NCBI GenBank assembly: GCA_022865305.1
Contig: JALHSP010000060.1
Location: 39,515 to 103,514 of the forward strand
Source of the DNA: Bacteroidales bacterium
GTDB lineage: Bacteria; Bacteroidota; Bacteroidia; Bacteroidales; VadinHA17
Reading direction: 5' to 3'
DNA length: 64,000 nucleotides
A program made the position numbers and the translations under genes. The notes under the pieces were generated by a model. It made no database searches, was not told the DNA's origin, and saw only the letters and a list, made by a program, of their open reading frames with translations. Positions 59,847-64,000 of this stretch are shown in pieces (the first letter of the stretch is position 1; each line of letters begins with the position of its first letter).

Positions 59847-61592
59847 TTAAATATCGGATTCACTTACAAGTATCTGAACGCCATAATTTGGGAATATGAG
59901 CCATGATTCCGGATTATCGAAGTAGTCAAAATATGAACTTCCGCATTTCTCCCCTTTATTCTGGAATTCAATTTCATAATCAACTCCAGCAGTACCCTGG
60001 AGAAATCCTAGTTTTAAAGTATCTTTTGCATTGAATCCTACACCAATCTTAACCGTTAATTTGCCAGATGGCCTATCGTATTCTTCGGCTGTAAAAGTCA
60101 ACATATCATACCAGAATCCGGGTTGCCAGTCAAGCACCTTAACTCCAGTGAATACTTGTGATACTTTTGACCGTTTTGAAAACATGCAGTTTATCTGATC
60201 CTGAACTTTAAAAGGATTCTTATTTACAGGCTCGACATTTGTTACAGTTATATAAAATTCAGGCTTCCCCGCAATCCAGCTTTCAATTTTCCAGTCCGTA
60301 AATTTTATTTGTTTAATATAAACAGGAGAATCCTGGGATATATCTCTGTAAGGAGCCTGGATAAAGTCATATTTTGGATTCGATTCTCCAAGGGGAGTTA
60401 CATGAACAACTTTGTAAATTGTTTTCTTACCAATAGCAATATCCGTATCAAAATAATCATACTGCCCTGATGTAAAGGTCTTATATAAAACATAATCAGG
60501 ATTAACACCAACAACATTTTTATAAACTCTTGTCTCCATTATGTACTGGGTGTTATCATTCTGCCAGCGAAGTTCTACAATACTTTTAGCATGCTGTATC
60601 GCATCAAACGACAGAACAGGCTTCGGGAGCGGGGGAGCTGAAATTGTCAGGTAATTAGTAGGTGATGAAATTTCGCTTTCGTAATAAGCTAATACATAGT
60701 ATGAATAAGACTTTTGAGACACAACATTATTGTCATCATAACTCCTGTTATTTACCCCGATTACTGTGGACATCAGGGCAAAATATGAATCACTTGATGA
60801 TTTACGATAAACATAGTAACCTGTTGTATTATTCACGTTTGCTGTATCCGGCATTACCCAGTTAAGTCTTATCCCTGATTCAGTAAGCACTCCTGTAAGA
60901 TTATATGGAGCTGGTGGCAATACAGGCCCCTTGGGTTCTTCAATAATCTCAATGCGTTCATTCATACTGATCACTATTACAGGATCCTCAGGAGGATTAA
61001 CTGCATCAAGTACAACTGTACTCCCATCCGAAGTATACCCAACAACCTCTTCTGTTGTAGCCTCATCAAACTCAAGCGGTATAAACGTCACAACCGGGAC
61101 ATAGGTTTCGTTAACCCATTTCTCGGCATTAACAGGAACAGAAATCTGTAAATAGGGATACTTCGAGATCAGATCATCTATAACTGATCCTGAAGACTTT
61201 TTTTCTGCCGGACCCAAAGAACTTTTAAAGTGACTCTGTAAGAGATCCCTGACACAAAAGTTTTCTCCGGCTGATTTTACTGAGGACTGGGCCGGATCTA
61301 CCCTGTAATTGACAATGTTTGACAGTAACACATCATAATCTCCGTCGAACATTTTCAAAGCTTCTTCCTTTACAAGGTTTCTGAAGCTTTTGTTCTCTTT
61401 AATTGCGGAAGTGACAGCCAGTGAGAAATCCTGCATATCCAGGTTGTATCCATTCTTTTCAAATAATCCTCCAGTTTTTTGGGAATTATCTGATCTGAGC
61501 TCAGTTCTTTCGCAGCCAGCTGGTATCGTTACAATATAAAGTACTAAAATGATACCTGTCAAAAACAAGTTTATATTTATGGTCCTTTTCAT
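59847..61592 (-). CDS. Hypothetical lipoprotein with fibronectin type III domains
   Basis: PAGC lipobox-like; PPAPYNLTG...IRLNW...GYYVYRK...SYDDNNV...YSYYVLAY; a second VELRW...YRV-like repeat. Confidence 0.75.
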   Translation of the reverse strand: MKRTININLFLTGIILVLYIVTIPAGCERTELRSDNSQKTGGLFEKNGYNLDMQDFSLAVTSAIKENKSFRNLVKEEALKMFDGDYDVLLSNIVNYRVDPAQSSVKSAGENFCVRDLLQSHFKSSLGPAEKKSSGSVIDDLISKYPYLQISVPVNAEKWVNETYVPVVTFIPLEFDEATTEEVVGYTSDGSTVVLDAVNPPEDPVIVISMNERIEIIEEPKGPVLPPAPYNLTGVLTESGIRLNWVMPDTANVNNTTGYYVYRKSSSDSYFALMSTVIGVNNRSYDDNNVVSQKSYSYYVLAYYESEISSPTNYLTISAPPLPKPVLSFDAIQHAKSIVELRWQNDNTQYIMETRVYKNVVGVNPDYVLYKTFTSGQYDYFDTDIAIGKKTIYKVVHVTPLGESNPKYDFIQAPYRDISQDSPVYIKQIKFTDWKIESWIAGKPEFYITVTNVEPVNKNPFKVQDQINCMFSKRSKVSQVFTGVKVLDWQPGFWYDMLTFTAEEYDRPSGKLTVKIGVGFNAKDTLKLGFLQGTAGVDYEIEFQNKGEKCGSSYFDYFDNPESWLIFPNYGVQILVSESDI

Positions 61593-62013
61593 TTCATTGT
61601 TTTTTAATTTGCACCTTTAAAAAATTGCTCTCTCAAGCAAAGTTTATCCCCGGCATAATTTCGGGACCCGGGGACTTCACTTCTCCCGTATTTTCTGAAT
61701 TACTGTACTTCATTCAGAAAATAATGATGCAATAGCACTTTTTACAGCAGCGAGATATATTTTTAAAGGTTATACTTCAAGTTATTCCACAATACTTTAA
61801 TAAACCATAAATAACCAGCACAAATATCAAAACGTCTTAAACCCGTTAAATTCCGTGATTAACCTTCACAAACTCACATTAAATAAAATAATCTTTCGAT
61901 TGCAGATCGAATTGTACTATAAAATTAAAGCTAAATTTTATCAAATTCAAATTTTTTTGTCAGAATTTTAAAAATATTATTTCAACTGCCGTATGCGGTT
62001 GAAACATGTGTTA

Positions 62014-62137
62014 ATCTGCAAACAGACCGCCACAACGTGGCTCAGTCTCGTAGTGACTACCTGCTTGTAGAAAACAACCAATCAATCATGTTCAAGTTCC
62101 GTAGAGCCTGCCCCGCATTAGCGGGGAGCGGCCTGTT
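62014..62137. repeat. REP-like family A copies downstream of tnpA
   Basis: Forward copy 62014-62042, reverse copy 62044-62072, interrupted reverse copy 62095-62137. Confidence 0.75.
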
Positions 62138-62140
62138 CGA

Positions 62141-62599
62141 TCAAATCCATTCAAACAAGTATTTTGGATCATATTCTACATCAAATTTTTCAAGTAATTT
62201 AAGGTATTCATTCTTGAATGTGGCTTTTCTGTGATGCTCTTCCTGTGAATTTATATATTGAATTACTTCATTGATCTGGGAATGGCTATATGAAAATGCG
62301 CCGTATCCTTCCTGCCATTGGAATTTACCAGGCAGCCATCTCTTGTCGTTTATAAATTTAGATGCGTTTGCCTTGATATCCCTTAATAAATCTGGTAATG
62401 CCTGTGAAGGTTCATATCCGATAAAAATGTGAACATGATCAGGCATATAATTTATTGCCAGCAATTTATGTTTCCGATTTTGAATTATCCCAGTGGTATA
62501 TTTTTGCAACTCCTCTTTATGTTTTATGGGAATTACATTTTCGCGTCCTATTGGAGAGAAAACCAGATGAAGGTAAATTCGGGTATAGGTATTTGCCAT
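62141..62599 (-). CDS. tnpA: IS200/IS605-family HUH (Y1) transposase, REP-associated type
   Basis: YLHLVFS, HUH motif DHVH, FQWQEGYGAFS, catalytic Tyr in QYINSQEEHH; no tnpB. Confidence 0.93.
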   Translation of the reverse strand: MANTYTRIYLHLVFSPIGRENVIPIKHKEELQKYTTGIIQNRKHKLLAINYMPDHVHIFIGYEPSQALPDLLRDIKANASKFINDKRWLPGKFQWQEGYGAFSYSHSQINEVIQYINSQEEHHRKATFKNEYLKLLEKFDVEYDPKYLFEWI

Positions 62600-62658
62600 A
62601 CTAGTAAGTATTTAGTTATTATGTTCAAAATACAATTTAAACAGCGAAACATATAAAT

Positions 62659-62940
62659 ATGACCATTCAGGTACCCACCGCGTGGTTTAAATGTAAAAAT
62701 ACATATTTTTTCTACAAACAGACCACTGCTATGCGGTTCAAAAACATCATCACATGCATTATTCTACAAACAGATCACCGCTACGCGGCTAAAAAACATC
62801 ATCACATGCATTATTCTACAAACAGGCCGCCACCACGCGGCTCAGTAATAACTTAGTTGATTTTGAAGAGTCCCGTAGTGACGACCTGTTTGTAGAAAAA
62901 AGATCGGAGATTGATTTCCAAGCTCCACAGGCACTGTCTA
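62659..62940. repeat. REP-like family A array upstream of tnpA (52-bp period)
   Basis: ttctacaaacag plus hairpin at 62710, 62762 and 62814 (degenerate copy near 62659); reverse copy 62869-62897. Confidence 0.85.
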
Positions 62941-62966
62941 ATGGCATTATTACCATTATGAGGTCA

Positions 62967-63178
62967 GAAGATGCCGGAGGCATCTAAGTATAATATCCAT
63001 GGTTACATCCATGGTTAATTGCAGGTAGTATCAGACAACACCGGCGGTGTTGAAGAATTATAATAATAAACATCCATCTTTAAATAAACAACTTCAACCC
63101 ACTCCGGGATTGAGAAGAAACACTCCTCCTACCCCGTATGTAACCGGGGCTATTAGACTTTAAAGCCTCCGGCTTTAG
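62967..63178. repeat. Inverted pair of about 90-bp REPIN-like units (family B)
   Basis: gatgccggagggcatc...ccatggttacatccatgg...caacaccggcggtgttgaa and its diverged reverse complement at 63094-63178. Confidence 0.7.
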
Positions 63179-63215
63179 AAAATCAAAAAACCGGTTAGAT
63201 GAAGATGTGTAATGA

Positions 63216-63861
63216 ATCGAGTAGGAAGTGAGTGATTAATTCACTCACTGTCCTCTCACACCACCGTACGTGCCGTTCGGCATACGGCGGTTCGTCAGAG
63301 ATAGCTGCGAAAACAGCTTGTGAATGTTACACTTCTCTATGTAGGTTGTTAGCTCAGCATATCTTTGGTAGGTTCAGCTTCCGGCATACTTCCACACAAA
63401 AGATTACGTCCATTTAGACCAACTGCTTTCAACGCGACGCAACACTAATATCAAAGTACTATCACCTCTAACGTTCAGCCCTTCTCTCGCTTTTGCGAGA
63501 CACTATGGCATCTGCTGACTCCTGACCATTCAGCCGTACATCGCTGTACGGGTTGTCGGGTTTGTAATCTATCCCCAACTTATTGGTCAGGTCTCCCCGG
63601 GTAAGAACGATAATTTTCATCCCATATACCTGCTGCATTTACTCCAAGGGGTTCGGGCAGTATTGGACTTCACTTTGTTATGCAAGCTCATCCGCCCCTC
63701 ATAAGCCTTATATGCAGTTCTTGTTCATCAGGCCGGAACTTTGCCTCCGGCTTCCTTCAGATTCCACCTCACGGTGGACACCCTTGCCTTTAGCTAACAC
63801 TTCCTACTGCCAGGTGTGTTCGGGTCTTTCACCCTATAGTTATCGCCCATGCCGGGCGCAC
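63216..63861 (-). mobile_element. Group IIC intron lacking an intron-encoded protein ORF
   Basis: 5' GTGCGCCCGGCATGGGCG; DIII agtcagcagatgccatagt...gaagggctgaac; DV GAACCGCCGTATGCCGAACGGCACGTACGGTGGTGT (CGC triad); DVI ending CCTACTCGAT; follows a terminator. Confidence 0.93.
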
Positions 63862-63897
63862 ATAAAAAAAAGCCCCCGGAGCTGATTTCCGGGGGCC
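63862..63897 (-). terminator. Intrinsic terminator forming the 5' exon target of the intron
   Basis: Minus strand gcccccggaaatcagctccgggggc-tttttttt-at immediately before GTGCG. Confidence 0.9.
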
Positions 63898-63918
63898 ATT
63901 TCATTGAATTGTTACTTT

Positions 63919-64000
63919 TTATTTATCGTTTCCGGGGCAGACACATTCACCATACGTAATTTCTCCAGTTTCAAGATCCATTGTAAAGGTCATAATATAA
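63919..64000 (-). CDS. 3' end of an unknown CDS entering from outside the window
   Basis: Open frame ...YIMTFTMDLETGEITYGECVCPGNDK* ending just before the terminator. Confidence 0.5.
   Translation of the reverse strand, partial: YIMTFTMDLETGEITYGECVCPGNDK

Follow-up and report, generated by a model that had tools for sequence, protein, structure and literature searches.

An ORF-less group IIC intron behind an intrinsic terminator in a Bacteroidales genome, probably a non-autonomous retroelement with sibling copies at other hairpin-adjacent sites

The genome of a Bacteroidales bacterium carries, just behind an intrinsic terminator, a group IIC intron of 646 nt that encodes no protein. This element is probably a non-autonomous retroelement, descended from an ORF-less founder that spread to hairpin-adjacent sites with the help of an RT/maturase acting in trans. 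The window, i.e. the whole stretch of DNA that was analysed, comprises 64,000 nt (G000:C23:39515-103514), and its contig runs on for 666 bases past it; unless a contig or locus is named, all positions below are those of the window.

IIC introns are characterized by a small ribozyme, insertion by terminators, a short IBS1 and a single-base IBS3 (PMC4424553, PMC8643678). ORF-less introns are rare in bacteria and nearly always occur beside a related IEP-encoding intron, with C.te.I1 of Clostridium tetani as the sole exception (PMC4424553, PMC3245105). The ORF-less IIB introns of Thermosynechococcus elongatus go back to one deletion followed by proliferation, with 'driver' IEPs acting in trans (PMC2882425). 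A large survey catalogues ORF-less introns, in its available sections without class detail (PMC8919778). The literature searched contained no account of natural ORF-less introns that form a IIC family; the ORF-less set of that survey (Miura et al. 2022) may include such introns.

Bounds, domains and class of the intron

A cmscan search of positions 60000-64000 against Rfam 15 gave exactly three matches, all of them on the minus strand, over the full model and above the gathering score. RF02001 (group-II-D1D4-3) matched at 63606-63778 (152.6 bits, E 3.6e-33), RF01998 (group-II-D1D4-1) at 63478-63555 (69.7 bits, E 1.2e-11) and RF00029 (DV/DVI) at 63216-63292 (50.1 bits, E 4.7e-08). The RF02001 score is on par with those of RT-encoding relatives (149.4-153.6 bits). 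RNAalifold, applied to four copies of the element (see below), returned a DI-DVI fold of 202 pairs, and the six domains expected of a group II intron were thus recovered from the Rfam matches and the fold together. The termini also follow the group II rule (5' GUGYG, 3' AY), with GTGCG at 63861 and ...GAT at 63216. A first-pass annotation, made by a model from the letters of the sequence, had described a 646-nt element on the minus strand with a GTGCG 5' end, interpreted as a structurally intact, ORF-less IIC intron after a terminator, and had named the Infernal search and the DI-DVI fold as the way to check it. The exact bounds agree with that description (from the G of GTGCG at 63861 to the T of ...CTCGAT at 63216), and the interpretation is borne out by the three full-length matches, the six-domain fold, the lack of an ORF and the hairpin upstream. 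The parts of the intron are as follows:

63216..63861, minus strand: whole ORF-less group IIC intron, GTGCG to CTCGAT (sequence, cmscan, RNAalifold)
63596..63861, minus strand: domain I (DI), intron positions 1-266, contains the RF02001 match (cmscan, RNAalifold)
63517..63595, minus strand: domain II (DII), intron positions 267-345, partly under RF01998 (RNAalifold)
63474..63516, minus strand: J2/3 and domain III (DIII), intron positions 346-388 (cmscan, RNAalifold)
63293..63473, minus strand: domain IV (DIV), intron positions 389-569, 181 nt, closing stem of 8-10 bp (RNAalifold)
63351..63426, minus strand: DIV core, intron positions 436-511, long hairpin, DIVa-like (conservation, fold; putative function)
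63259..63292, minus strand: domain V (DV), intron positions 570-603, CGC triad, 2-nt bulge, GAAC-type loop (cmscan, RNAalifold)
63216..63258, minus strand: domain VI (DVI), intron positions 604-646, bulged branch-point A, 3' end ...CTCGAT (cmscan, RNAalifold)

A short DV with a CGC rather than an AGC triad is a mark of IIC introns. The DV of the element is of this kind: counting the closing A and U, it is 32 nt long and forms 13 pairs, with CGC at the base, and among the ORF-less copies only one of its 34 columns varies. The bulged A of DVI (63222, alignment column 640) lies seven bases from the 3' end and is invariant in all four copies. Both the RF00029 match and the consensus fold agree with the earlier reading of a short DV with a CGC triad and of a DVI at the 3' end.

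The one class C feature that we did not find is the IEP, an RT without endonuclease domain, as DIV contains neither an ORF nor an RT remnant. The IIC class is set by the RNA independently of the IEP (PMC4424553), and therefore still applies when the IEP is missing. By RNA criteria the element is a IIC intron, and the missing IEP is its only departure from the class. All six domains needed for catalysis are kept in the RNA, which may be competent for splicing.

Domain IV contains no ORF but a conserved core

DIV is free of minus-strand ORFs of ≥30 aa; in the element as a whole, the longest one on that strand (56 aa) lies within DI-DIII. A 19-codon frame starting with ATG is present in DIV; each of the three sibling copies has a TGA inside it. 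Permissive tblastn of the element with two class C RTs gave nothing better than E 0.28. The absence of an RT ORF from DIV, already noted in the first-pass annotation, is thus upheld. In a search for ORF remnants flanking a deletion, blastn-short comparison of DIV with 12 relatives produced only chance words of 10-11 nt. DIV thus shows no deletion bordered by RT remnants that would account for its origin.

In the consensus fold, DIV is closed by the very stem that had been proposed from the sequence (gttagag...gatag with ctatctctgac). An unusually stable fold was ruled out, since DIV alone folds no better than shuffles (z -0.69). The DIV core (436-511) is the second most conserved part of the intron, with a mean pairwise identity of 96.1% over the four copies, and has a short GCAG...AAUC-hairpin motif, but no alignable homology, in common with the beginning of DIV in relatives that encode an RT. 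The resemblance to the DIVa maturase-binding region that had been claimed earlier therefore stands as far as the conserved core and the shared motif are concerned, whereas homology and special stability found no support. We regard the core as a candidate DIVa-like binding site for a maturase/RT.

The insertion site and the predicted exon pairings

The intron is surrounded by the following features, which include the sequence elements that may have guided its insertion:

63919..64000, minus strand: 3' end of the upstream gene, which encodes a 153-aa protein of no Pfam family and leaves the window (ORF, Pfam)
63871..63897, minus strand: intrinsic-terminator hairpin, 10 pairs (8 G-C), 7-nt loop (terminator scan; -22.8 kcal/mol, z -3.97)
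63862..63871, minus strand: T8 tract and AT, of which the last four bases (UUAU, 63862-63865) are the proposed IBS1 (sequence; predicted pairing)
63678..63681, minus strand: proposed EBS1, AUAA, in the terminal loop of a DI hairpin (RF02001 loop, covariation in copy L055; predicted)
63215..63215, minus strand: first 3'-exon base, U, proposed IBS3, the same in all four copies (predicted)

The intron starts 10 nt past the terminator stem and 2 nt past the T-run. The earlier placement, 2 nt after the U-tract of a GC-rich terminator, proved accurate: eight of the ten stem pairs are G-C, and the T8 tract is followed by AT and then by the intron. Since the upstream gene and the intron lie on the same strand, read-through transcription would reach the intron. 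IIC introns typically insert just past a stem-loop, either of an intrinsic terminator or of an attC site. Each of the four copies sits behind a hairpin, with fold z values of -3.97 in the window and of -2.80, -7.14 and -5.64 in the metagenome copies L054, L055 and L056, respectively; a simple terminator scan called the window's site only and not those of L054 or L055.

IIC introns pair with their exons through a short EBS1-IBS1 and through EBS3-IBS3, and have no EBS2. The proposed EBS1 lies in an eight-base DI hairpin loop, which is also modelled as a loop by RF02001. Complementarity between AUAA and UUAU is complete (4/4) in the window's copy and in L054, while L055 has two Watson-Crick pairs and one G-U pair and the tandem L056 has two pairs out of four. 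In L055, the first base of EBS1 changes from A to U and exon position -1 from U to G (loop UUAA, exon ending in UUUG), and this co-change turns a would-be G-A mismatch into a G-U pair. Another AUAA, in DII (intron positions 279-282), was considered as EBS1 and dropped in favour of the one in the DI loop, which is a modelled loop and co-varies with the L055 exon.

Hairpins near-identical to the terminator of the window (about 30 nt, 90-100% identity) occur in many genomes of the same genus. In its own genome the hairpin is found at three loci only, and a high-copy repeat was therefore ruled out. Downstream of the intron lies an ORF for an IS200/RAYT-like Y1 transposase (62141-62599, minus strand; PF01797, E 9e-24). 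The stretch between this ORF and the intron (62969-63177) is a member of a repeat family (about 85-200 nt) that is frequent in other genomes of the genus, sometimes in tandem, and may be REP-like.

A single copy in its own genome

The element is present once in its own genome, where both RF02001 and a DVI 20-mer match the window's copy only. A search for other short copies was thus negative, and the term MITE-like, used in the first-pass annotation, does not apply within this genome. RF00029 matched at 26 places, and the other 25 score 61-64 bits, above the window's copy. Most of those places are situated ~60-140 bases from contig ends (e.g. G000:C87:19822-19898, C3:1994-2071 and C21:2299-2373). 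As these intron repeats end many contigs, they rank among the main reasons why the assembly is fragmented. Three examined copies (C3, C21 and C87) have an AGC-type, longer DV (34 nt), and the RTs of the other introns (RVT_1 and GIIM) are 25-35% identical to class C RTs. The about 25 other group II introns of the genome are of non-IIC classes and unrelated to the element. At least two of the heterologous RT ORFs, on C21 and C87, are apparently open.

A cognate RT was sought in the assembly by tblastn with five class C RT queries, which returned only a remnant on contig C131 besides the RTs at 25-35% identity; marker genes put the completeness of the assembly at 99.46%, but as it is split into 176 contigs, a cognate RT may have escaped it. 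The remnant occupies the start of C131 (G000:C131:1-215, minus strand, locus L002), where the contig end truncates it. It combines a DV start 91% identical to the DV of the window with the decayed C-terminus of a class C RT (~60 aa, about 50% identical). It lies behind an ABC-ATPase gene and adjoins a dapA-like gene fragment, as judged by eye. In addition, one 92-aa stretch at the end of C47 is 42-49% identical to the class C RT queries. The first-pass annotation had recommended looking for a full-length RT-encoding relative, and the decayed C131 remnant is all that the assembly of its own genome offers in this respect.

ORF-less copies in other environmental DNA

We used a DIV-specific 24-mer as an exact-word probe in reference-genome and metagenome collections. 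It had no locus in the reference genomes and matched three metagenome contigs, all of which (3/3) carry a full ORF-less copy of 645-646 nt. These copies are 90-92% identical to that of the window over their whole length, including DIV. Short repeats aside, the flanks of the three copies resemble neither one another nor the genome of the window, and no RT was detected on the three contigs (0 hits). L056 (L056:1-743) is a head-to-tail tandem, in which the hairpin upstream is the DVI of the other copy; the tandem junction is one base short, so that the downstream copy lacks G1. Tandem insertion of ORF-deleted introns has been obtained experimentally with a IIB1 intron (PMC12584367). A contig from a soil run of another study contains the same DIV (7 differences in 217 nt), with 118 nt of DI/DII missing. 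One ORF-less architecture is thus shared, at different sites across environmental DNA, by four complete copies, a partial one in the tandem and the soil variant.

BLAST of the 181-nt DIV against 400 other genomes of the order revealed no copy; the single match, of 23 nt, was attributed to chance since it lies in an acidic coding repeat and has no Rfam hit. The DVI 20-mer gave 0 hits in viral contigs. On two of the three contigs (L055:1-735 and L056:1954-2601), the ORF-less copies are located near ORFs that resemble, by eye, a replicative helicase and a P-loop ATPase, and the L055 and L056 contigs may be phage or other mobile DNA. A tRNA suspected by eye upstream of the L055 copy was discarded, as ARAGORN found none.

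The empty allele that the first-pass annotation had proposed to look for in relatives was not found: 604 nt upstream and 601 nt downstream of the intron had no orthologous locus in 120 other genomes of the same genus (best hit 75% over 222 nt). The hits obtained are explained by a paralogous gene family, by similar terminator hairpins and by the downstream repeat family. For the flanks of the metagenome copies, no syntenic empty site was present in the genome of the window.

Conservation of the fold

Standard base pairs occupy 97.2% of the 808 pair cells of the four-copy alignment, compared with 38-41% when the partners are slid. Compensatory double changes affect six pairs (shuffled mean 3.0; six reached in 1 of 500 shuffles), a statistic that is weak because it is drawn from four sequences and from a structure derived from the same alignment. 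By domain, the mean pairwise identity is highest in DV (98.5%), followed by the DIV core, DVI (95.3%), DI (92.9%), DIV overall (91.8%), DIII (87.6%) and DII (87.3%). Among the 202 predicted pairs, non-standard cells number six in the window's copy, one in L054, two in L056 and 14 in L055. The six of the window are split evenly between DI-DIII and DIV (three each), and none falls in DV or DVI. A divergence of 8-10% that is accompanied by compensatory changes and by a conserved DV and DIV core suggests that function was maintained in the ORF-less form during its diversification. In the RNA run X15, the only contigs that aligned were those of relatives, over conserved parts and mostly 90-95% alike, and no spliced joint was seen.

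RT-encoding relatives and deletion derivatives

The search for relatives in the same genus covered 60 genomes. Two of them (G014 and G011) contain full-length relatives of about 1.9 kb, with RF02001 scores of 153.6 and 149.4 bits, respectively. Their RTs (405-475 aa) comprise RVT_1 and GIIM and no endonuclease domain, and their DI is 80-82% identical to that of the window's copy.

In reference genomes, the DVI 20-mer matched 21 loci, mainly in Bacteroidales MAGs. These loci lie mainly at contig ends, which indicates multi-copy elements. The identity of DV/DVI is 95-98% at most loci, 100% at L075 and 82.5-93% at L062 and L073. At L066, L072 and L074, a class C-type RT C-terminus leads into DV; a contig end of G062 is 93% identical to the first 132 nt of the element; in G061, DI-DIII are 85% identical to it; and L077 is frameshifted. 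From these sequence similarities, the Bacteroidales MAG introns with a near-identical DV/DVI are likely to be autonomous kin of the element.

Rearranged forms were also encountered. A derivative in G033 (L051:269-790, G033:C73) lacks both the ORF and DV, and at L075 (L075:1336-2023) 108 nt of DI are joined to the C-terminal half of the RT and to DV-DVI. In G061 (G061:C16:12919-16718; L074, L078), a stretch of 3.8 kb that includes the RT of another intron separates the 5' part of a related IIC intron from its 3' part, an arrangement that may be a nested, twintron-like insertion.

Comparison with known introns

With class C introns such as B.h.I1, O.i.I1 and GsI-IIC, the element has in common the small six-domain ribozyme with a CGC-type short DV, the site a few bases past the hairpin of an intrinsic terminator, on the same strand as the gene that ends there, the predicted use of a short IBS1 and a single-base IBS3, and relatives that encode an RT/maturase without endonuclease domain. 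Its RNA may be comparable to the O. iheyensis ribozyme. Unlike these introns, it has no IEP of any kind, and its DIV is a 181-nt non-coding insert with no ORF remnant.

The TeI3 introns of T. elongatus offer a parallel in several respects (PMC2882425): a single ORF-less founder form is common to all copies, the copies occupy different sites with matching exon pairings, RT-encoding relatives exist, and the DIVa region is retained (in the element, a region that is DIVa-like by conservation). However, the element is a IIC and not a IIB intron and is found at hairpins, whereas TeI3 uses sequence-specific homing sites. Moreover, its copies are spread over environmental genomes instead of being amplified in one, with a single copy in the genome studied here. 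Neither a related IEP-encoding intron in the same genome nor ORF remnants on both sides of a deletion, two hallmarks of the TeI3 type, were found: the assembly is without a cognate IEP, and the remnants visible in TeI3 have no counterpart in the element.

C.te.I1 is likewise ORF-less, and no related IEP gene is present in its genome (PMC4424553); it resembles the element in both these points. It differs in lying within genes, where alternative splicing yields mRNAs (PMC4024640), while the element is intergenic behind a terminator and its genome is an incomplete assembly that holds a decayed class C remnant.

A model for the spread of the element, and its alternatives

In the model that we consider probable, an ancestor would have lost its RT/maturase ORF before the spread. 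By reverse splicing and reverse transcription, the ORF-less form would then have colonised a number of sites next to hairpins in various environmental Bacteroidota; the RT/maturase for these steps would have come from a related autonomous IIC intron and would have bound the DIVa-like hairpin. Entry at the present site would have taken place by reverse splicing just 3' of the terminator stem-loop, guided by the EBS1-IBS1 (AUAA/UUAU) and one-base EBS3-IBS3 pairings.

Mobilisation in trans had already been put forward in the first-pass annotation. It is favoured indirectly by the presence of the same ORF-less form at at least four hairpin-adjacent sites, by the compensatory changes, by one EBS1/IBS1 co-change and by RT-encoding relatives with a DV/DVI 95-98% identical. 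The genome of the window, with its single copy and without a cognate RT in the assembly, speaks against it, as do the missing RT remnants and ordinary stability of DIV, the mispairs of the window's copy, the metagenome contigs that combine no ORF-less copy with an RT, and the lack of an empty site. With no other copy and no cognate RT assembled, the window's copy is probably stranded in its own genome. Self-splicing from read-through transcripts is the most that it may still achieve there, and its location in non-coding DNA means that self-splicing would be without consequence for the host.

The same observations could be taken to mean that the window's copy is a dead relic, a decaying and immobile class C leftover that neither splices nor moves and owes its good preservation to recent inactivation. 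We find this unlikely, even if the copy is alone in its genome, the only trace of a cognate RT is the pseudo-remnant in the decayed class C 3' fragment of C131, deletion derivatives are common in this intron group (G033, L075 and the soil variant), and six mispairs were counted where L054 and L056 have one or two. A relic does not account for an ORF-less architecture that recurs at at least four sites, 8-10% diverged, with compensatory changes and with DV and the DIV core conserved; moreover, the catalytic landmarks of the window's copy are all intact and its IBS1 matches EBS1 at 4/4 positions. The relic reading concerns the present state of one copy, and is compatible with the family history of the model given above.

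It is highly improbable, in our view, that the element is a ribozyme independent of proteins or kept by the host, for instance for 3'-end processing or for stabilisation of the upstream transcript, or that it is served by the maturases of the ~25 non-IIC introns. A non-coding site behind a terminator holds nothing that needs splicing, and no orthologous locus exists in the 120 other genomes of the genus that were searched. The other copies stand behind unrelated genes, a pattern that points to selfish spread more than to a role for the host, and the heterologous introns have a different DV type. In favour of such a role are the intact domains in an assembly without a cognate RT, the open-looking heterologous RT ORFs on C21 and C87, the precedent of C.te.I1 as an independent ORF-less bacterial intron (PMC4424553), and the self-splicing of IIC introns in vitro, which is reported to be mostly hydrolytic (PMC4748821, PMC7161350). 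An assembly artefact, be it a collapsed full-length intron or a chimeric join in the MAG, is barely credible, since positions 62900-63894 recur with 0 differences in an independent Logan contig from what is probably the source run, which rules out the collapse of a longer DIV, and since three JGI metagenome contigs of other metagenomes share the short DIV within the same 645-646-nt architecture, although the genome is in 176 contigs and many of these end in intron repeats.

Implications

The non-autonomous IIC retroelement that we favour would be a naturally minimal IIC ribozyme of 646 nt, equipped with a target hairpin and with predicted exon pairings that match. Its small family kept the fold while moving to new terminator sites. 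Elements of this ORF-less type are overlooked by gene-based annotation. The intron constitutes a compact natural substrate for studying how class C RTs recognize an intron in trans, and it could help to establish whether binding takes place at the conserved DIV hairpin and whether the loss of the ORF aids the spread of IIC introns, as it does for IIB introns. A further reading, which we hold to be rather improbable, is that the ORF-less IIC lineage moves between Bacteroidota with no resident cognate RT, using RTs that phages or other mobile DNA bring in for a time, or RTs of relaxed specificity from unrelated intron classes such as the about 25 introns of this genome; the phage- or mobile-element-like genes beside two of the three metagenome copies would fit this reading. 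If it were true, RNA alone would make up the heritable part of the element, which could then be called a natural 'minimal' group II retroelement.
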